Positions 764-18,081 of a stretch of 64,000 bases of DNA are shown in pieces. Both the position numbers and the translations under genes were made by a program. Below the pieces are notes generated by a model. That model saw nothing but the letters and a program-made list of their open reading frames with translations, did not search any database and was not told the origin of the DNA. Source of the DNA: Actinomycetota bacterium (lineage in GTDB: Bacteria; Actinomycetota; Acidimicrobiia; Acidimicrobiales; Poriferisodalaceae). The stretch covers positions 57,637-121,636 of the forward strand of contig JBCDAU010000012.1 of assembly GCA_039185015.1 (NCBI GenBank). The letters are read 5' to 3'. How positions within the stretch are numbered: position 1 is the first letter of the stretch; each line of letters opens with the position of its first letter.

Positions 764-2944
764 ATGCCTGCATCCATTCGCCGGTCGCGCGTCATCGCGC
801 TCCTGCTCGCCGGCCTCACCCTGGCCGTCGTGGCCATCGGCTTCAGCCCCTCGTCATCGGCGGCGCCGGTCGGTTGGCACGAGGGTCGTCACACCCACCG
901 CATCATCGTCACGGTCACCAACGACGCGACCCCGAAGGTCGATGCGCTGGTGGAGGTCGGGTTTCCGACGAACCCCGCCAACCTGCTGCCCGAGACCGTT
1001 CGGGTGACCGAGGTGTCGAGCACTGACCCGACGACCAACGTCGAGGTCGAGGCCGACGTCCCGGTCCAGGTCGACGGCGGCGACACCGTGGTCTTCATGA
1101 TCGACGGCGCGCTCGGCGCCAACGAGACGCGGTTCTTCCACGTCTACTTCGGTTCCGACCGCGCTCAGTCTCCGGGCTTCATCGACACCACCGCCGCCGC
1201 GACGAAGCGGGCCGTCTCGGTCACGCTCCTCTCCGCGACGGCGGCCGGCAACCCGTACGGCGTGGCGATGTACGAGATCGAGACCCGCGCCGGCACCTGG
1301 TACTTCGACCCGAACGGCGGCGGCTTCGCCGGCCTCGTCGATGCCGACGACAACGACTGGATCGGCTGGGACCCGGACCTGCCCGACGAGGGCGGCGAGT
1401 TCCGTGGCATCCCCAAGGCACGGCTCGACACCGCGGAGTACGGAAACGATGAAGGACCGTTCTCGCCCGGCTCGAACGACACCCTGAGCAACATCGTCGA
1501 TCAGGGTCCGGTCCGGGTCACGTTCCGCTCGCAGAGTCGGGACTTCGCCGACCTCAGCGTCGATGGCAACTGGGTCGCCGAGTTCGCGGTCGGCCCGCGA
1601 TCCATGACCTTCGAGATGACGACGGCGCAGAGCGGCGTCGAGTGGCGTTCGCTCTACCAGGGCGAGCCCGGCGGTTCGCTCACGAACGCCGACCAGATCA
1701 TCCTCTCGGGCCAGAACGGCAACGCCCCGACCCAGCTGAACCTGACCAACTTCAGCGGCGCCTCGCTCGGCTCCCCGGAGTGGGCGGCGTTCCTCGACGG
1801 ACCGACCACCCGCTCGCTGGTCGTCTCGGCCACCACCAACCCCGAGGTCGACCTGGCGACGAGCCGGACCACGGCCGAGGGATCGACGACCATCTTCGGC
1901 TTCGGTCGCGCCTCCTCGGCGCAGAACAGCCACGAGCTGACCGGCACCGGCGACGTGTTCACCTACGGCCTCGTCGACTCGAAGACCTCCGGCACCCTCG
2001 AGGCCCGCGCCAACGACTTCCGGGCCGGCGCGATCGGTGACGGCGGGGGGACGGCGACGGCAGCGGCGATCGAGGTGAACACCGACGTCGACACCCCGGA
2101 CGACGCCCCCGAAGCGACGACCACCACGGTGATCACCACCCCCGACACCATCCCGCCGCTGCCGCTCTCGGGCTACCGACTGCTCGACCAGCGGGGCGAC
2201 GTCTACGTGTTCGGCGAGGCCACATTCCTCGGTGAGGCCCGCGGCGACAACGCCCTCCCGGGGACTCCGGTCGACATCGAGTCCACCCCGTCCAACCGCG
2301 GGTACTGGATCATCGACGACCAGGGCAACATCCGAGCCTTCGGCGACGCCACGAACGCCCTCGGAGGCGTGACCACAGCGCTCGATCCGGGCGAGACGGT
2401 GTCGACGATGTCGGCCACGCCGACCGGCGGTGGATACTGGATCTTCACCACCAAGGGTCGAGTGCTCACCTTCGGCGACGCGGGTGACTTCCAGGACCTG
2501 TTCGACATCACCGACGCCAACGGCAACGTGATCGCGAACATCCTCAACGGTCCGATCGTCGACTCGGTGGCCACGCCCTCCGGCAACGGGTACTGGATGG
2601 TCGGCTCCGACGGTGGCGTGTTCACCTTCGGCGACGCCCAGTTCTTCGGCTCGATGGGCAGCACACCCCTCAACCAGCCGGTGAACGGCCTCGTGCCCGA
2701 CCCCGACAACGTCGGGTACTGGCTGGTCGCCGGCGACGGTGGCGTGTTCGCCTTCGACGCCGAGTTCCGGGGCTCCATGGGCAGCATCCCGCTGAACCGA
2801 CCCGTGGTCGGCATGGTGTCCTACGGCAACGGCTACCTGATGGTCGGCGCCGACGGCGGCGTGTTCAACTTCTCCGACCTGCCCTTCGACGGCAGCCTCG
2901 GTGACAACCCGCCAACGGTCCCGGTGGTGGCCATCACCGCCTGA
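764..2944 (+). CDS. secreted protein with an N-terminal signal peptide and six C-terminal ~45-aa tandem repeats (GYW...GGVFxFGDA...GSxG), predicted beta-propeller; function unknown
   Basis: RBS ggaagg lies before the ATG. Signal peptide MPASIRRSRVIALLLAGLTLAVVAIGFSPSSSAAP. Repeat units are visible directly in the translation between residues ~470 and 726. Confidence 0.7.
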   Translation: MPASIRRSRVIALLLAGLTLAVVAIGFSPSSSAAPVGWHEGRHTHRIIVTVTNDATPKVDALVEVGFPTNPANLLPETVRVTEVSSTDPTTNVEVEADVPVQVDGGDTVVFMIDGALGANETRFFHVYFGSDRAQSPGFIDTTAAATKRAVSVTLLSATAAGNPYGVAMYEIETRAGTWYFDPNGGGFAGLVDADDNDWIGWDPDLPDEGGEFRGIPKARLDTAEYGNDEGPFSPGSNDTLSNIVDQGPVRVTFRSQSRDFADLSVDGNWVAEFAVGPRSMTFEMTTAQSGVEWRSLYQGEPGGSLTNADQIILSGQNGNAPTQLNLTNFSGASLGSPEWAAFLDGPTTRSLVVSATTNPEVDLATSRTTAEGSTTIFGFGRASSAQNSHELTGTGDVFTYGLVDSKTSGTLEARANDFRAGAIGDGGGTATAAAIEVNTDVDTPDDAPEATTTTVITTPDTIPPLPLSGYRLLDQRGDVYVFGEATFLGEARGDNALPGTPVDIESTPSNRGYWIIDDQGNIRAFGDATNALGGVTTALDPGETVSTMSATPTGGGYWIFTTKGRVLTFGDAGDFQDLFDITDANGNVIANILNGPIVDSVATPSGNGYWMVGSDGGVFTFGDAQFFGSMGSTPLNQPVNGLVPDPDNVGYWLVAGDGGVFAFDAEFRGSMGSIPLNRPVVGMVSYGNGYLMVGADGGVFNFSDLPFDGSLGDNPPTVPVVAITA

Positions 2945-7612: not shown

Positions 7613-8523
7613 ACGAGGTCCGGGTCGGCCTCTCCATCACGTCCGCGCTCCCGGTCGACGACCCGCGCGACGGAGCCACCGACCTGATCGCCCGAGCCGA
7701 GGCTGCCGATCGGGCCGGCCTCGACCTGCTCTGCATCGGCGACCAGCACACCACCCCGATCCCGTACTTCCAGAACGTGCCCACGCTCGCGCGGCTCTCG
7801 GCCGCCTTCAGTGGTCCGCAGCTCGGAGCGCTGTTCCTCGTCCCACTGTGGCATCCGGTCCTGCTGGCCGAGCAGATCGGCACGCTGGCCGCCTTCGCTC
7901 CCGGTCGGTTCGTCGTGCAGGCCGGCCTCGGCGGTGGACGCGGGCAGTTCGCCGCCATGGGCATGCCCTACGCCGGTCGAGCCGCCCGCTACGACGAGGC
8001 GCTCCGGATCGTCGATGCGCTCCTGGCCGGCGAGACCGTCTCGAGCGAGATGTTCGACGTCGTCGACGCCCGCATCGCCCCGATCCCGGTGGAGCCGGTC
8101 GAGTGGTGGCTGGGGGCCGGCGGCGAGCGGGCCCTCGATCGCGTCGCTCGGCGTCAGGCGACCTGGTACGGCAACGCCGACCTCACCCCGACCACCGCGG
8201 CGGAGCGGCTGGCGGTGTTCCGCGTGGCCTGCGAGCGCCACGGCCACGAGCCCGAGCGCATCGCTGTCCGGACCGACGTGATCGTGCTCGACGACGACGC
8301 CGAGGCCCGGCGGCTCGGCGACGACCTGATGGCCGGCGGCTACCGAGGCCTGTCGGCCGACGCGGTGGCCTACGGGTCACCCACCTCGGTCGCCGAGCAA
8401 CTGGAGCCGTACGTCGAGCTCGGCTTCACCGACCTCGTCGTGCGGACGATGGCCGTCCCGCCCGAGACCGCGCAGCGGAGCATCGAACTCACGGGAGAAG
8501 TGCGCCGACTGCTCCGAGCCTGA
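7609..8523 (+). CDS. LLM-class (luciferase-like) flavin/F420-dependent oxidoreductase
   Basis: GTGA start/stop overlap with the CoA-transferase. Sequence ...DLLCIGDQHTTP...WWLGAGGERALDRVARRQATWYGN is typical of the LLM family. Confidence 0.8.
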   Translation: MNEVRVGLSITSALPVDDPRDGATDLIARAEAADRAGLDLLCIGDQHTTPIPYFQNVPTLARLSAAFSGPQLGALFLVPLWHPVLLAEQIGTLAAFAPGRFVVQAGLGGGRGQFAAMGMPYAGRAARYDEALRIVDALLAGETVSSEMFDVVDARIAPIPVEPVEWWLGAGGERALDRVARRQATWYGNADLTPTTAAERLAVFRVACERHGHEPERIAVRTDVIVLDDDAEARRLGDDLMAGGYRGLSADAVAYGSPTSVAEQLEPYVELGFTDLVVRTMAVPPETAQRSIELTGEVRRLLRA

Positions 8524-8532
8524 ACGCCGACG

Positions 8533-9429
8533 TCACCGTGTGGGCGCCGCCGGCATCGCACCCACGAGCCCGATCCAGTTCTCGTTCTGCCGTTCGAGGA
8601 TCGATTCGGCCGCTCCGACGAAGGCAGCGGCGTCCACCGCGTCTGCGACGTCGTAGCGGTCGAGCAGCTCGTCGAGCCTCCGGGCGGTCGTCGCGTAGCC
8701 GGCCGCGATCTGGGTGTGTCGGGTGGCATCGAGGTGCGCGGCGACCGCCGAACCGATGGTCGTGGCGACGCCGATCCACACCCCGAACGCCGAGGAGTCG
8801 AGGAGCGACGCGATCCCGGTGAGGGCGGCCCCGGCGAGGGTCGCGGCCAGCTCGAGTCGTCGAAGCCGGCGGGCCGCGCCTCGGTGCTCGGAGATCTTCC
8901 CGTCGTGCCACCTCGCCTGACCCCTGACGCGGAGCTCGACGTAGCTGGCGAGGTCGGACACCGCGGGCAACGGATCGTCCGGACCCTCGACGTCGACCAG
9001 CTCGACGTCGAGGGTGCGGACGGTCTCGGCGATGCGCTCGGACACGGTGGCGAGATCCTCGTCGCGACCATGGTCGTCGAACGGTGGCGTGCCGACGAGG
9101 TACTCGTGCACGGCCGCCCGGAGCGCCTCGGCCGCGCCGCGCGCCATCGTCCATCGCTCGGCGTGGCCCGACGCCGCCTCCCGCTGCGCGAAGCCGGCGA
9201 GGAGCAGCGCACCGGCGCCGGCCGCGCCGACCACCGCGGTCACCGCTCGCGGCAACGACTGCGCGGCGATCGCTCCGAGGAGCGCACCCGTGCCGAGCAG
9301 CACGAGGTTCGCCAGCCGGAGCCGGTCGAGCCGTGCCCTGGTCCTCACCGCCAGCCGGTCGTAGGCCTGCTGGCGGGCCCAGACGCGCTCGACGGCGCTG
9401 CGGTCGTCAGGAGCCTCGCTCGTGTCCAC
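8533..9429 (-). CDS. membrane protein with two tandem SLATT-like (DUF4231-like) modules, each a 2TM hairpin followed by an E/W/R/Y-rich helix
   Basis: Start GTG at 9429 preceded by ggagga. Module 1: LANLVLLGTGALLGAIAAQSLPRAVTAVVGAAGAGALLLAGF then AERWTMARGAAEALRAAVHEYL. Module 2: LAGAALTGIASLLDSSAFGVWIGVATTIGSAV then IAAGYATTARRLDELL. The domain assignment is from memory of the family pattern, not a search. Confidence 0.5.
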   Translation of the reverse strand: MDTSEAPDDRSAVERVWARQQAYDRLAVRTRARLDRLRLANLVLLGTGALLGAIAAQSLPRAVTAVVGAAGAGALLLAGFAQREAASGHAERWTMARGAAEALRAAVHEYLVGTPPFDDHGRDEDLATVSERIAETVRTLDVELVDVEGPDDPLPAVSDLASYVELRVRGQARWHDGKISEHRGAARRLRRLELAATLAGAALTGIASLLDSSAFGVWIGVATTIGSAVAAHLDATRHTQIAAGYATTARRLDELLDRYDVADAVDAAAFVGAAESILERQNENWIGLVGAMPAAPTR

Positions 9430-9449
9430 TGATCCTCCGTTCGCCGGTC

Positions 9450-10610
9450 CTAGCGCTCGGCGTACACGGCAGTCTCGAGCTCCATGAACAGCTCGACGCT
9501 GCCGGGATCGGCGAACGGCAGGATCTGCGACAGGTACGCGCCACCGATGCCGTTGGTGCGGTCGATCCAGAAGTAGCTGTTGGCGAGACCGGCCCACATC
9601 AACGTCCCGGCCGGGCGACCCGTCGAGCCCGCCTGCTCGTGGATCTGGAACGTGAGCCCCCAGGACTTCTCCTCGCCCGGGAAGAGCTCGGCGTCGTTGG
9701 AGAACGGCGGCATCGCCGTCAGCAGCTCGTTCACCCGCAACGGACCGATGTGGTTGACCACCATGTCGGCCACGGTGTCGGTGCCGAGGACGCGGGTGCC
9801 GTCGAGCTCACCGTCGTTGAGGACCATCTGGATGAAGCGGCCGTAGTCGGTCATCGTGCCCTGCAGTCCGCCACCGCCCATCTCGAACTCCGGCGCCTCG
9901 GGAGCGGGCAGCTCCATCGGGGCGAAGCTGCCGTCGGGCATGCGGGCGTGCACGCCGCAGGCTCGCTCGAGCATCGACGGGGTGTGGGCGAAGGCCGTGT
10001 CGGCCATGCCGAGCGGACCGGTGAGGTGCTCGGCGAAGTACTCCCCGAGGGTCTGCCCGGTGACCGCCTCGATCATCAGGCCGGCCCAGTCGATGCCGAT
10101 GCCGTACTCCCATGCCGTGCCCGGGTCGAAGGCGAGCGGTGTGCGCAGTGCCTCCTTCTGGAGCGTGAAGAGCGAGAGCGCCCCGGTGGCCTCGCTCCAC
10201 CGCACCTGCCGCTCGTTCCAGATGTCGTAGACGAAGCCGGAGGTGTGCGTGAGCAGGTTCCGCAGCGTGATGTCACCGACGGCGGGTCGCAGGATCGGCT
10301 GGCCATCATCGTCGAGGCCGTCGAGCACCTGTGGATCGGCCAGCTCGGGCAGCACCTTCGACGCCGGAGCATCGAGCGAGAGGTGCCCCTGCTCGACCAG
10401 CTGCATCGCCGCCGCACCGGTGATGGCCTTGGTCATGGAGAAGATGGCCCCGACGGAGTCCGGCGTCATCGCGACGTCGCCGCCGATCGCTCGTGCGCCG
10501 GCCGCTCCCTCGTACGTCGCTCCGTCGCGGTCGACGACGACGAACGACGCTCCCGGTGCCGCTCCCCGCTCGATCCCCGCCGCGAGCACCTCGTCGAGAC
10601 GATCTTTCAT
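9450..10610 (-). CDS. serine hydrolase, beta-lactamase/transpeptidase fold (class C beta-lactamase / EstB-like esterase family)
   Basis: SxxK motif SMTK, plus YxN-like and HTSG motifs. 386 aa. Confidence 0.85.
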   Translation of the reverse strand: MKDRLDEVLAAGIERGAAPGASFVVVDRDGATYEGAAGARAIGGDVAMTPDSVGAIFSMTKAITGAAAMQLVEQGHLSLDAPASKVLPELADPQVLDGLDDDGQPILRPAVGDITLRNLLTHTSGFVYDIWNERQVRWSEATGALSLFTLQKEALRTPLAFDPGTAWEYGIGIDWAGLMIEAVTGQTLGEYFAEHLTGPLGMADTAFAHTPSMLERACGVHARMPDGSFAPMELPAPEAPEFEMGGGGLQGTMTDYGRFIQMVLNDGELDGTRVLGTDTVADMVVNHIGPLRVNELLTAMPPFSNDAELFPGEEKSWGLTFQIHEQAGSTGRPAGTLMWAGLANSYFWIDRTNGIGGAYLSQILPFADPGSVELFMELETAVYAER

Positions 10611-10752
10611 GGCTTCCCCCTCGTGCCGCCGCGGAGCCTACGCGTGCCACCGATCCGGGCGCTCGGACGGCTGGTGCCGCACGCGCCTCGCCCGAGGCCG
10701 AGCCCGCGGGCGGGCTGTTCCGGCCATCCGCCGGCTCGGCCAGACTGCGGGC

Positions 10753-12633
10753 GTGCCTCGCACGCTCCTCGGTCCCGCCCACCCCTCGTTACCCACCGGG
10801 GTCGAGCTCGACGACGAGGGTGACCGTCTCGTCCTCCGCGCCACGGAGCCAGCGACCGACCTCGCGAGCGGAGTGTTCGCCTCGCCCGGCGCCCACGTCG
10901 CCTTCCGCGTCGACGAGCTCGCCGGTGGGCCGGTCGAAGCGCTCGGCTTCGCGTTCACCCAGTTCGCCATGCCGGTGCGCACCGTCCTCCCGGCTCCGTT
11001 CGAGTTCGCGCCGTCGTCGGCCCTCGCGTCGCCGCCGGCGGTGGTGCCGCTCCTGCTCCGCGCCGGCGGCACGGTGACGCTGCTCGCGCCGCTCGACCAC
11101 GTCCACGATCACGTGATCGGGGTCGTCCAGGACGAGCGGCACGTCACGGAGCTGCGCTGGGGCTGGCACGGTGACCTGGACGAGGTGCCCGACGGGTACG
11201 CCACAACCCTCGGCATCTACGAGGGCGGCTCGGTCGCCGAGGTCCTGACCCGCTGGGGCGCCGAGCTCCAGGAGGCCGCCGGTACCCGGCGGCTCGGTCG
11301 CGCCGACTCGCCCCTCACCGAGCAGCTCTCCTACTGGACCGACAACGGGGCGGCCTATTGGTACCGCACGGAGCCGGGGCTCGATCTGCCGACGACGCTC
11401 GAACGCAAGCTCGACGAGCTCCGGTCGGCGGGCGTCCCGATCGGCGCCGTCGAGCTCGACTCGTGGTTCTACCCGCACGAGACCAGCCGGCCCGTTCTCG
11501 AGGTCGGCTACACCGAACAGGTCCCGCCCACCGGGATGCTCGAGTGGACCGCTCGGTCCGACGTGCTCCCCGACGGGGTGGACGGCCTCGCCGACCGCCT
11601 GGGTCGCCCGCCGCTCGTGCTGCACAGCCGCCACATCTCGACCGCCTCGCCGTACCTGGACGAGGGCGAGTGGTGGACCGAGCTCGCAGCGCAACCGGTG
11701 GACCCGCGGTTCTTCGCCCGCTGGTTCGACGACGCGGCGAGCTGGGGAGCGACCTGCATCGAGCAGGACTGGCTCCTCTTGTACTGGTGGGGCACGGCCG
11801 AGCTCCGACGGATCCCCGGACGGGTCCGCGAGTGGCAGACCACCCTCGATCGACTCGCCGCCGAGCGCGACCAGACGCTGCTGTGGTGCATGGCCACACC
11901 CGCCGACCTCATCGCCACCGTCGAGCTCGGCCGCATCGTCGCCGTCCGCACCAGCGACGACTACCGGTACGCCGACGATCCCGCCTTCCTCTGGCAGTGG
12001 TACCTGGCGGTGAACGCGCTCGCATCCGCGCTCGGCCTCGCGACGTTCAAGGACTGCTCCTTCACCGCCGGGCTGGAGCCGGGTGACGAGGTGATCGACG
12101 GTGACCCGTACCCCGAGGTCGAGGCCGTGCTGCAGGCGCTCTCGGCCGGTGTCGTCGGCATCGGCGATCGGATCGGTCGGACCGACGCCGACGTGGTCGG
12201 ACGACTCCTCCGACCCGACGGCACCCTCGCCACGTCCGACACGCCGGTCACCGTCCACGAACGCTCGGCGTTCCGCCCGTGGGACGCCGACGGCGAGCTG
12301 ACGTGGGCGACCGCCTGGTGCGGCGCCCATCACTACGTGCTCGCACTCCACGCCGCGGCGACCGACGCCCCGATCAGCGACGGACTCGACCTCGACGGCG
12401 AGTGGCTCGTCTACGACTGGCGCTCCGGGACGGCGAGGCCCAGCGGACGTGTCGACGCCGAGCTCGATCATCGCGGCTGGGCCCTGTTCGTCTGCTGCCC
12501 GCTCTCCGGTGCGACCCCCGACCGGTCGGCCGTCGTCGGCGACCCGGACCGCTACGTCACGATGTCGGGCGTCGTCGGCGACGAGCCCGGACTGCTGCGG
12601 TGGACCGAGGGCACCGGCCTCACCCGCTCCTGA
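10753..12633 (+). CDS. hypothetical protein (~626 aa), possibly glycoside-hydrolase-like; function unknown
   Basis: Long ORF with good codon bias (high GC3). The start is uncertain: GTG 10753 is the first in-frame start after the divergent hydrolase gene. The track ORF from 10243 would overlap that gene. Confidence 0.5.
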   Translation: MPRTLLGPAHPSLPTGVELDDEGDRLVLRATEPATDLASGVFASPGAHVAFRVDELAGGPVEALGFAFTQFAMPVRTVLPAPFEFAPSSALASPPAVVPLLLRAGGTVTLLAPLDHVHDHVIGVVQDERHVTELRWGWHGDLDEVPDGYATTLGIYEGGSVAEVLTRWGAELQEAAGTRRLGRADSPLTEQLSYWTDNGAAYWYRTEPGLDLPTTLERKLDELRSAGVPIGAVELDSWFYPHETSRPVLEVGYTEQVPPTGMLEWTARSDVLPDGVDGLADRLGRPPLVLHSRHISTASPYLDEGEWWTELAAQPVDPRFFARWFDDAASWGATCIEQDWLLLYWWGTAELRRIPGRVREWQTTLDRLAAERDQTLLWCMATPADLIATVELGRIVAVRTSDDYRYADDPAFLWQWYLAVNALASALGLATFKDCSFTAGLEPGDEVIDGDPYPEVEAVLQALSAGVVGIGDRIGRTDADVVGRLLRPDGTLATSDTPVTVHERSAFRPWDADGELTWATAWCGAHHYVLALHAAATDAPISDGLDLDGEWLVYDWRSGTARPSGRVDAELDHRGWALFVCCPLSGATPDRSAVVGDPDRYVTMSGVVGDEPGLLRWTEGTGLTRS

Positions 12634-16746: not shown

Positions 16747-18081
16747 ATGGCACGGGTGTTCTTGTCGTATCGCCGGGCCGACGGGCCCTACGCCGTCGGC
16801 TGGATCTCCGAACGACTCGCCCGCCTGGACGAGGTGACCGAGGTCCGCACCGCCTACTACGACACCGAGCTCCGTGCCGGCGACTCGTTCCCCGACGCGC
16901 TCGACGCCGCCGTCGACGGGTGCGACGTCCTGCTCGCCGTCATCGGACCGGAGTGGGCCGGGCATCGGGCGGACGGCTCCTCGCGCATCTGCGAGCCCGA
17001 CGACTGGGTCGCACGAGAGATCGGCGCGGCGCTCTCGCGCGAGGTCGTCGTGCTCCCGGTGCTCGTCGATGGGGCTGCTCCGCTCTCCGCGTCGATGCTC
17101 CCCGCAGCGTTGGTGCCGTTGGTCGACAAGCACGCGCTCCGCTTCGACGGCACCGACGAGCTGGACACGATCGCCACCCACCTGCGGTCCCACCTCGACG
17201 AGATCGATCGGGGTCGTGCGGCGCGGCGAGGCCTCCTCGAGCCGGTGTCGCCGCCGTCGATGCTGCCCCGACGCCGAGCCCTCGCCGAGGCCGGAGCCGC
17301 TGCGCTCGTCGCTGGCCTCGTCGCCTGGTTCGTCTTCTCGTGGTTCGCCTCGGGCATCGATGCGGCCGACGCCGACCTCGACGGCTGGGTCACCGCCACC
17401 ACCCTGCTGTGGTCGCTGTCGGCTGCGCTGGGGGTGCTGGGAGCCGGGGCCGCTCGCCGCTACTTCCGCGACGGCGTGCGGATCCGGTGGCCACCGATCA
17501 TCACGGCGGCGGTGGCGACCTCCGCCGTGCTCGTGTGGACGGGACTCCAACCGAGCGCCGACCGGGATGCGCGGCTCGAGGTCGGCCAGTGGCTCGGCTC
17601 GGCCGGCGGTGTCGTGCTCGCCTCGCCGTGGGTCCTGACGCTCGCCGGCTCGGCGTGGACGACCATCACGGCCGACGAGCGCGACCTCGGAGCCCGCGCG
17701 GGCGTCATCGCTCGGCTCGGCCAGGCCTCGCTGGTGTCGGCCGCCGCCCTCGCGGTCGCCGCCTCGGCCGGCATCATCACGACGGCATTCGCCGGTGCGC
17801 TCGCGGAACGGACCGGGTTCGGCGAGCAGCTGCGCCTCATCGGACAGGGCGCGCTCTTCGCCGGCCTGCTGGCGGTGGTGCTGGTCTGGAGCCGCACCCG
17901 GCTGGAGCGATCGTCGATCGAGCTGCGGACCGACCTCGCCACCGTGCCACCGGAGTACCGGCGCCACGCCGAGCCGGTCCTGCTCACCGAACCGCTCGAT
18001 CGACGGGCCCGCTGGATCGTGGTGGCGCTCGCGCTCCCCCTCGTCGCCGGAATCGTCGCCGCTGTCACGATCGCCACCTGA
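16747..18081 (+). CDS. TIR-domain protein fused to a C-terminal polytopic (about 7 TM) membrane domain
   Basis: N-terminus MARVFLSYRRADGPYAVGWISERLA is the FxSYRR.D TIR_2 signature. DDWVAREIG gives W-x3-E at the position of the TIR catalytic Glu. Residues ~175-440 form repeated 18-25-aa hydrophobic stretches. Confidence 0.8.
   Translation: MARVFLSYRRADGPYAVGWISERLARLDEVTEVRTAYYDTELRAGDSFPDALDAAVDGCDVLLAVIGPEWAGHRADGSSRICEPDDWVAREIGAALSREVVVLPVLVDGAAPLSASMLPAALVPLVDKHALRFDGTDELDTIATHLRSHLDEIDRGRAARRGLLEPVSPPSMLPRRRALAEAGAAALVAGLVAWFVFSWFASGIDAADADLDGWVTATTLLWSLSAALGVLGAGAARRYFRDGVRIRWPPIITAAVATSAVLVWTGLQPSADRDARLEVGQWLGSAGGVVLASPWVLTLAGSAWTTITADERDLGARAGVIARLGQASLVSAAALAVAASAGIITTAFAGALAERTGFGEQLRLIGQGALFAGLLAVVLVWSRTRLERSSIELRTDLATVPPEYRRHAEPVLLTEPLDRRARWIVVALALPLVAGIVAAVTIAT

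Follow-up and report, generated by a model that had tools for sequence, protein, structure and literature searches.

A tandem SLATT gene behind an esterase-type hydrolase gene in an Acidimicrobiales genome probably encodes an orphaned ThsH-like effector

Introduction

Does a beta-lactamase-fold serine hydrolase gene, followed after 20 nt by the gene of a two-module membrane protein, make up a new conflict system, or has a known kind of effector gene come to lie behind a metabolic gene? The question is raised by a 64,000-nucleotide stretch of DNA from an Actinomycetota bacterium (Acidimicrobiia, Acidimicrobiales, Poriferisodalaceae; assembly GCA_039185015.1, contig JBCDAU010000012.1, positions 57,637 to 121,636 of the forward strand), the whole of which is called the window below. 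An initial annotation, made from the sequence alone, had read the 298-aa product of the second gene as two SLATT-like modules of two transmembrane (TM) helices each, and had regarded a tandem SLATT protein with a hydrolase partner as an undescribed arrangement. Our analysis indicates that this protein is probably an orphaned effector of the ThsH type, that its adjacency to the hydrolase is incidental, and that it may answer a nearby TIR protein in trans.

Type VII Thoeris combines the TIR protein ThsB with a "SLATT" effector, ThsH, and its TIRs are reported to produce canonical cyclic ADP-ribose (cADPR; bioRxiv 10.64898/2025.12.03.692087). The AlphaFold3 model of ThsH is a membrane-spanning homo-oligomer with positive pockets between the protomers, and its predicted action runs from binding of canonical cADPR through oligomerisation to breach of the membrane (bioRxiv 10.64898/2025.12.03.692087).

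Results

Two SLATT modules in one protein

The window has a GC content of about 71%, and the minus-strand open reading frame (ORF) that ends at 8533 reaches 354 aa in its maximal stop-to-stop form. Judged from its coding signals, the credible product is the 298-aa form starting from the GTG codon at 9429 and not the 354-aa form, because a Shine-Dalgarno sequence (GGAGGA) lies 5 nt upstream of that codon, GC content at third codon positions (GC3) is 0.90 in the 298-aa form, like that of the neighbouring genes, and 0.83 once the upstream extension is counted, homologues start near residue 10-13 of the window protein, and NCBI annotated an identical 298-aa product in another metagenome-assembled genome (GCA_039196055.1, contig JBCCVA010000009.1). 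The gene and the parts of its product are:

8533-9429, minus strand: tandem SLATT gene, 298 aa, ThsH-like, DUF4231/SLATT_3 followed by SLATT_1 (ORF, Pfam, NCBIfam, AlphaFold2 and hhalign)
9004-9366, minus strand: N-terminal SLATT module, aa 22-142 (Pfam, hydropathy and conserved columns)
9259-9315, minus strand: TM1, aa 39-57 (hydropathy)
9184-9246, minus strand: TM2, aa 62-82 (hydropathy)
8575-8943, minus strand: C-terminal SLATT module, aa 163-285 (Pfam, NCBIfam, conserved columns and hhalign)
8800-8856, minus strand: TM3, aa 192-210 (hydropathy)
8731-8787, minus strand: TM4, aa 215-233 (hydropathy)

Both modules were recognised by Pfam above the gathering cutoffs: DUF4231 (PF14015) at aa 23-120 (51.5 bits, cutoff 24.7), SLATT_3 (PF18184) at aa 22-142 (31.4 bits, cutoff 26.3) and SLATT_1 (PF18181) at aa 163-285 (77.8 bits, cutoff 26.3). 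The NCBIfam SLATT_1 model scored 99.2 bits (cutoff 41), and NCBIfam SLATT_3 scored 34.7 bits, which is under its cutoff of 45. Hydropathy places the four hydrophobic helices in two tight hairpins with 4-residue loops and flanks rich in Arg and Lys, a pattern that fits a topology in which both termini and every soluble helix are cytoplasmic. The N module runs from an Arg-rich lead-in helix through TM1 and TM2 to a post-TM helix with the R97/E101 motif; the C module consists of a lead-in helix (Y163, R167, Q171), TM3, TM4 and a post-TM helix (H232, Y245, E275, W285). Across 45 aligned homologues, E101 is invariant and R97 nearly so, and the window protein retains all four family-invariant residues (E101, P155, R167 and E275).

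When profiles of the N-terminal and C-terminal halves of the 45-member alignment were compared, hhalign aligned them colinearly over 105 columns (probability 93%, E 3e-7), and therefore the protein is, at the level of profile comparison, an internal duplication of a single SLATT unit. The AlphaFold2 model, calculated with the same alignment, is all-helical and confident (pLDDT 91.2, pTM 0.85), with helices at residues 12-55, 61-85, 160-210 and 216-261. The two SLATT-like modules and the four TM helices proposed in the initial annotation are thus borne out by family models, hydropathy and the similarity between the halves. Its alternative of a known transporter found no support, as the protein matched no transporter family; searches of PDB by sequence and by fold were also without a match.

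The tandem form is common and extends to ThsH

When 1.84 billion cluster representatives were searched exhaustively with HMMER, 923 relatives of the SLATT protein scored E<=1e-3, of which 428 reached E<=1e-10. Among the 150 best representatives, about 130 align from approximately residue 10 to residue 290, with lengths of 285-315 aa, and SLATT_1 and DUF4231 are both present in all 45 aligned homologues. Source databases already label members of the family as two-module. In sequence terms the tandem form is the norm of a large family rather than anything unusual, and the effector encoded beside a type VII ThsB has the same architecture.

The supplements of the type VII preprint list sequences for the TIRs and none for the effectors, so the architecture of ThsH was inferred from the gene beside a close ThsB homologue, with the validated Pseudohongiella type VII ThsB as the query (Table S1 of bioRxiv 10.64898/2025.12.03.692087). 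At locus L076 a ThsB with 90% identity to the query overlaps the next gene by 8 nt, and that gene encodes a 294-aa protein with SLATT_3 (146 bits) and SLATT_1 (112.7 bits). Comparison of the profile of the window family with this ThsH-like protein gave an hhalign probability of 97.3% (E 1.7e-11) over 268 columns. At the profile level, then, the window protein belongs, distantly, to the ThsH architecture; that it also works as ThsH does, we infer from this profile-level homology and the shared architecture only.

Close relatives are few. Only three SLATT proteins exceed 50% identity to the window protein, and the closest are P0002 (locus L020, 63% identity) and P0012 (locus L021, 56%, or 55% over 235 residues by BLASTP). 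A metagenome scan with the single SLATT protein found no relative, and an alignment-based rescan found 47 loci; the 45-sequence alignment was too diverse for contig-scan patterns, and a 10-sequence alignment was used. No SLATT match was obtained from the plasmid collection by tblastn.

The usual partner is TPR-S, often with a TIR gene nearby

Gene partners were examined in 65 SLATT loci other than that of the window (the latter, with about 10 kb on each side, is L001). They were collected from look-ups of the encoding contigs, GTDB genomes and JGI metagenomes, and local hidden Markov models (HMMs) of TPR-S, TIR and the hydrolase of the window were run against their ORFs. Upstream sequence was usable in 52 loci, and in 43 of these TPR-S (PF20308) is adjacent or fused to SLATT (42 by script count, plus L005, in which the called genes are neighbours). 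Its position is directly upstream, convergent downstream or within one ORF with SLATT; fusions of TPR-S and tandem SLATT, of about 990 aa, occur in approximately 20 of the 65 loci (for example L010, L014, L016, L037, L041-L043, P0021 and P0051). Shorter fusions of about 430-490 aa (P0025, P0027 and P0035) have only a piece of TPR at the C-terminus.

TIR genes were found within 5 kb of SLATT at 12 loci, although most contigs are short; in L018 the SLATT ORF starts 1 nt after the end of the TIR gene. Loci without TPR-S have other partners of the conflict type, such as a MoxR-like AAA gene and a gene for a 1383-aa protein (L008) or a prokaryotic LSDAT SLOG protein (L040), and in L054, L068 and L072/L073 the SLATT gene stands among ordinary genes.

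Some further observations concern these partners. In L017 (5443-11887) and L075 (7725-14384), neither of which has TPR-S, the tandem SLATT is followed by TIR_2 and then by an nSTAND1 NTPase, which in L017 carries WD40 repeats; a phage-tail-sheath-like gene lies directly upstream in L019 and L075. The TPR-S partners at L004 (1402-3366) and L005 (4126-6324) are weak PADLOC matches to PDLC00733 (E 1e-5 and 3e-4, respectively), and the matching region is the C-terminal, non-TIR part of that "TIR effector" model. At L078 (2758-4429; Pseudoalteromonas viridis, CP072425.1), a ThsB_TIR that shares 72% identity with ThsB of type VII has as its partner not SLATT but a 413-aa TPR-S protein, followed by an insertion sequence (rve) element. 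The effector of type VIII Thoeris is described as "CMP hydrolase and TPR", and the type VII and type VIII effectors answer the same signal (bioRxiv 10.64898/2025.12.03.692087). Because the ThsB_TIR of L078 is paired with TPR-S, the TPR of the type VIII effector likely corresponds to Pfam TPR-S. According to bioRxiv 10.64898/2025.12.03.692087, Burroughs and Aravind (2020, J Bacteriol 202:e00365-20) predicted a part for TPR in TIR signalling.

None of these partners lies beside the window gene. With an HMM made from the TPR-S partners of 11 loci, no TPR-S was found in the 64-kb window (the best score, E 0.036, fell on a luciferase-like gene), and the window holds no second SLATT gene. Neither a SMODS nucleotidyltransferase nor a SLOG domain was present among the Pfam-annotated genes of the 20.9-kb L001, the rest of the window being unscanned.

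The hydrolase is a neighbour by position

Upstream of the SLATT gene the window contains:

9430-9449, minus strand: hydrolase-SLATT spacer, 20 nt, holding the Shine-Dalgarno sequence GGAGGA (sequence read)
9450-10610, minus strand: AcmB-like beta-lactamase-fold serine esterase/hydrolase, 386 aa, with an S58-M-T-K61 motif (Pfam and NCBIfam)

The stop codon of the hydrolase gene is at 9450-9452, which leaves 20 nt to the SLATT start on the same strand, and a scan of 8300-10900 gave no site resembling a promoter or terminator. Because the gap has no space for a promoter or terminator of its own, the two genes are likely co-transcribed. The beta-lactamase fold is well supported (Pfam Beta-lactamase, 193.8 bits), and fold, strand and spacing were all given correctly in the initial annotation. 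Its description of the enzyme as class-C-like does not hold, as the NCBIfam bla_class_C equivalog scored 17.4 bits against a cutoff of 415. The best NCBIfam family is the AcmB methyl acetate hydrolase (NF052559; 459.8 bits, under the equivalog cutoff of 550). More than 6500 homologues of the hydrolase were found, the best with about 70-73% identity, and JGI names many of them "methyl acetate hydrolase".

No homologue of the hydrolase was detected in the 65 SLATT loci. Conversely, no SLATT gene lies beside the hydrolase orthologues inspected (three orthologues at 72-73% identity, on seven contigs); downstream of these three on long contigs are genes for a Cu-amine oxidase, an amidase or an ATC hydrolase, in varied metabolic contexts. 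A conserved pair of hydrolase and SLATT is excluded because thousands of hydrolase orthologues stand against three SLATT proteins above 50% identity.

The two closest SLATT relatives point in the same direction. In L020, the stop of the upstream gene overlaps the start of SLATT, and the last 64 residues of its product are unrelated to the hydrolase. L021 retains the genes downstream of the window SLATT gene, for a luciferase-like protein and a CoA-transferase, and the product of its upstream gene, 320 aa or longer, is unrelated. Identities between the window and L021 are 55% for SLATT, 67% for the luciferase-like protein and 57% for the partial CoA-transferase. The upstream genes of both relatives were also tested as hydrolase or TPR-S, and neither matched. 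Since the upstream genes differ and the downstream synteny is kept in L021, the junction upstream of the SLATT gene reads, in gene-order terms, as a breakpoint and not as a conserved operon. The pairing proposed at the outset thus does not recur across genomes: homologues of the SLATT gene are not syntenic with the hydrolase, which we regard, on gene order, as a positional neighbour and not as a functional partner. As far as synteny can tell, the SLATT gene's place beside a hydrolase of the esterase type is accidental and a single case.

The SLATT gene of L021 (1008-1890 of a Logan contig, ERR11443729) is frameshifted at about nt 1715-1717, at residue 235/236, and its last 57 residues lie in a different frame; it is a pseudogene or the result of an assembly error in one short-read contig.

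A TIR protein 7.3 kb away

The membrane protein with a TIR domain that had been noticed about 7 kb from the SLATT gene was recovered in the family searches:

16747-18081, plus strand: TIR_2 (aa 4-113) followed by a C-terminal region of about five TM segments, 444 aa (Pfam TIR_2, 44.9 bits)

This gene lies 7.3 kb from the SLATT start on the opposite strand, with eight unrelated, mostly metabolic genes in between. It stands alone among metabolic genes and is the only TIR gene in the 64-kb window; 37 kb of control loci contained none. Its TIR domain shares 42% identity with the TIR beside the SLATT gene of L004, and its best local matches are the TIRs of L061, L004, L030 and L029, which lie 0.2-3 kb from related SLATT genes. 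At three of these four loci (L004, L029 and L030) the SLATT proteins are among those most similar to the window protein. The domain contains a WVAREI motif with a conserved Glu, which is presumably catalytic, as in TIR NADases. No counterpart of the multi-TM region was found in any SLATT locus. The two genes may, tentatively, descend from one system, and their products could then still act in trans.

Other genes around the locus

A luciferase-like monooxygenase gene is convergent with the SLATT gene and lies 9 nt from its stop, and the neighbourhood is metabolic in general (carboxylase, CoA-transferase, luciferase-like monooxygenase and Rieske oxygenases). No tRNA was found within the window. 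Divergent from the hydrolase and SLATT genes is a coding-like gene for a 626-aa protein (10753-12633, plus strand; GC3 0.90) with no match in Pfam, NCBIfam, PADLOC or PDB sequences; it was compared with the 626-aa protein of L005 and is not the same protein. A called gene for a 726-aa protein (764-2944, plus strand) adjoins an acyl-CoA carboxylase gene and has no precomputed Pfam family.

Discussion

We consider it probable that the tandem SLATT protein is an orphaned ThsH-like effector whose gene lies next to that of the hydrolase only incidentally, perhaps responding to the nearby TIR protein in trans. By analogy with ThsH, it would sit inactive in the membrane until a TIR-made nucleotide derived from nicotinamide adenine dinucleotide (NAD; the nucleotide is canonical cADPR in type VII) bound its cytoplasmic helices; binding would let it oligomerise and breach the membrane, and the infection would be aborted. 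In this genome the gene would have lost its TPR-S neighbour and landed 20 nt behind the gene of an AcmB-like metabolic esterase, whose transcript it probably rides, given the 20-nt gap and the lack of promoter- or terminator-like sites. If the protein is still used, the most plausible source of its signal would be the TIR-multi-TM protein 7.3 kb away.

Several observations weigh against this explanation. The window protein and the ThsH-like protein of L076 are matched by BLASTP only at E 0.005. No TIR gene is adjacent to SLATT, and the nearest one, at 7.3 kb and on the other strand, belongs to TIR_2 and not to ThsB_TIR. A TPR-S homologue is absent throughout the window. The closest syntenic copy of the gene is frameshifted, so the gene may be decaying in this lineage. 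The spacing between hydrolase and SLATT is operon-like, and a shared operon often means functional linkage. Finally, PADLOC (2023) has no model that matches the window SLATT protein; it likewise gave nothing for the hydrolase, for the TIR of the window or for the L076 ThsH-like protein, which is explained by the date of the library.

The spacing is also the sole support for the reading first proposed, in which hydrolase and SLATT form a true two-gene module of this lineage without TIR, SMODS, SLOG or TPR-S, the esterase making, degrading or sensing the trigger, restraining the pore, or acting as a co-effector or antitoxin. Hydrolase-type effectors exist in some conflict systems (PMC7159879), and nothing resembling a promoter or terminator separates the two genes. 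Comparative genomics argues against such a module, which we regard as highly improbable: none of the 65 related loci has a hydrolase homologue, different genes lie upstream of the nearest SLATT relatives, also where the downstream synteny is kept, the AcmB-like family is abundant and strongly conserved in varied metabolic neighbourhoods without SLATT, and the surroundings in the window are themselves metabolic. Those metabolic surroundings, the luciferase-like and CoA-transferase genes that stay syntenic with the SLATT gene in a related organism, and the few relatives that stand beside genes for a GMC oxidoreductase, a permease or THAP4-like proteins could instead suggest a housekeeping membrane protein outside defence, for example in signalling or envelope stress, that shares the SLATT fold. 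This is improbable, as the dominant contexts of the family are of the conflict type (TPR-S, TIR, nSTAND1-WD40, MoxR-like AAA and LSDAT SLOG), the distribution is sparse, and SLATT evolves faster than its luciferase-like neighbour (55% vs 67% identity), though the partial CoA-transferase stands at 57%.

Whether the protein still functions divides the remaining explanations. It may be the leftover of a lost TPR-S/TIR/SLATT system, no longer triggered and drifting towards a pseudogene, as the missing TPR-S, the frameshift in L021 and the rarity of close relatives (three above 50% identity against thousands for the hydrolase) would suggest. We regard decay as rather unlikely, since the window copy is full length with a GC3 of 0.90 and a good Shine-Dalgarno sequence, keeps E101, P155, R167 and E275, and is modelled with a confident AlphaFold2 fold, and since an error of assembly may account for the frameshift, which comes from one short-read contig. 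The opposite case is a split Thoeris-like pair, in which SLATT is the working effector of the TIR protein at 16747-18081, the two genes having been separated by rearrangement and communicating through a diffusible NAD-derived nucleotide; it is compatible with an orphaned effector and makes a stronger claim. A TIR and a tandem SLATT alone suffice for type VII Thoeris defence (bioRxiv 10.64898/2025.12.03.692087). The window TIR finds its best matches in loci with related SLATTs, including the 42% identity to that of L004, it is the only TIR in 64 kb with none in the control loci, and it has the WVAREI motif with the conserved Glu, for which we assume the catalytic role. The distance of 7.3 kb, the opposite strands, the eight intervening genes and the multi-TM region without counterpart in SLATT loci speak against such a pair, and with TIR_2 proteins as common as they are in Actinomycetota, the two genes could lie near each other by chance; we therefore hold a working pair to be possible but doubtful.

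The window gene is thus a divergent, apparently orphaned and newly seen member of a known effector family, and the finding is largely ordinary. The effector role of SLATT was predicted by comparative genomics and was experimentally shown in 2025 as ThsH. The locus illustrates that orphan effector genes can lodge in metabolic operons and mimic new "systems", and the window may hold a TIR-TM/SLATT pair that has been dispersed. The close bond of the actinobacterial branch of the family to TPR-S, with about 20 fusions, supports a TPR-S sensor that feeds a SLATT pore.

Comparison with known systems

Among systems, the nearest sequence relatives are the TPR-S-linked tandem SLATT systems of Actinomycetota (47-49% identity; L004, L006, L029 and L030), which resemble the window protein in length and conserved residues. 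Those loci have a TPR-S protein of 650-730 aa directly upstream, convergent downstream or fused, often with TIR_2 genes 0.2-3 kb away, whereas the window has no TPR-S in 64 kb. The hydrolase aligns with AcmB end to end (aa 2-384 to profile positions 7-390) and has the SxxK motif, but misses the equivalog cutoff, so that its substrate is not assignable from the score.

Single-module SLATT effectors occur in cyclic-oligonucleotide-based antiphage signalling systems (CBASS), in restriction of phages by an RNA-acting adenosine deaminase (RADAR), and in the reverse transcriptase (RT) systems UG17/DRT10, AbiA and UG23 (PMC9226505; bioRxiv 10.64898/2026.04.29.721553). They share the 2TM hairpin fold with the window protein, and a pore-forming, cell-killing role has been proposed for them (PMC9226505; bioRxiv 10.64898/2026.04.29.721553). 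They differ in belonging to other families (SLATT-5 in UG17), in usually having one module, and in their partners, which are SMODS, RT or adenosine deaminase; none of these partners is present among the Pfam-annotated genes about 10 kb on either side of the window SLATT gene.

The closest parallel in architecture is ThsH of type VII Thoeris. Its gene has ThsB in the same operon, whereas the window SLATT gene is flanked by the hydrolase and the luciferase-like monooxygenase genes, and the N module of the window protein scores higher on DUF4231 than on SLATT_3, unlike that of ThsH. Pairwise identity between the two is very low, but their homology at the profile level is full-length, and both consist of SLATT_3/DUF4231 followed by SLATT_1 in a protein of about 290-300 aa.

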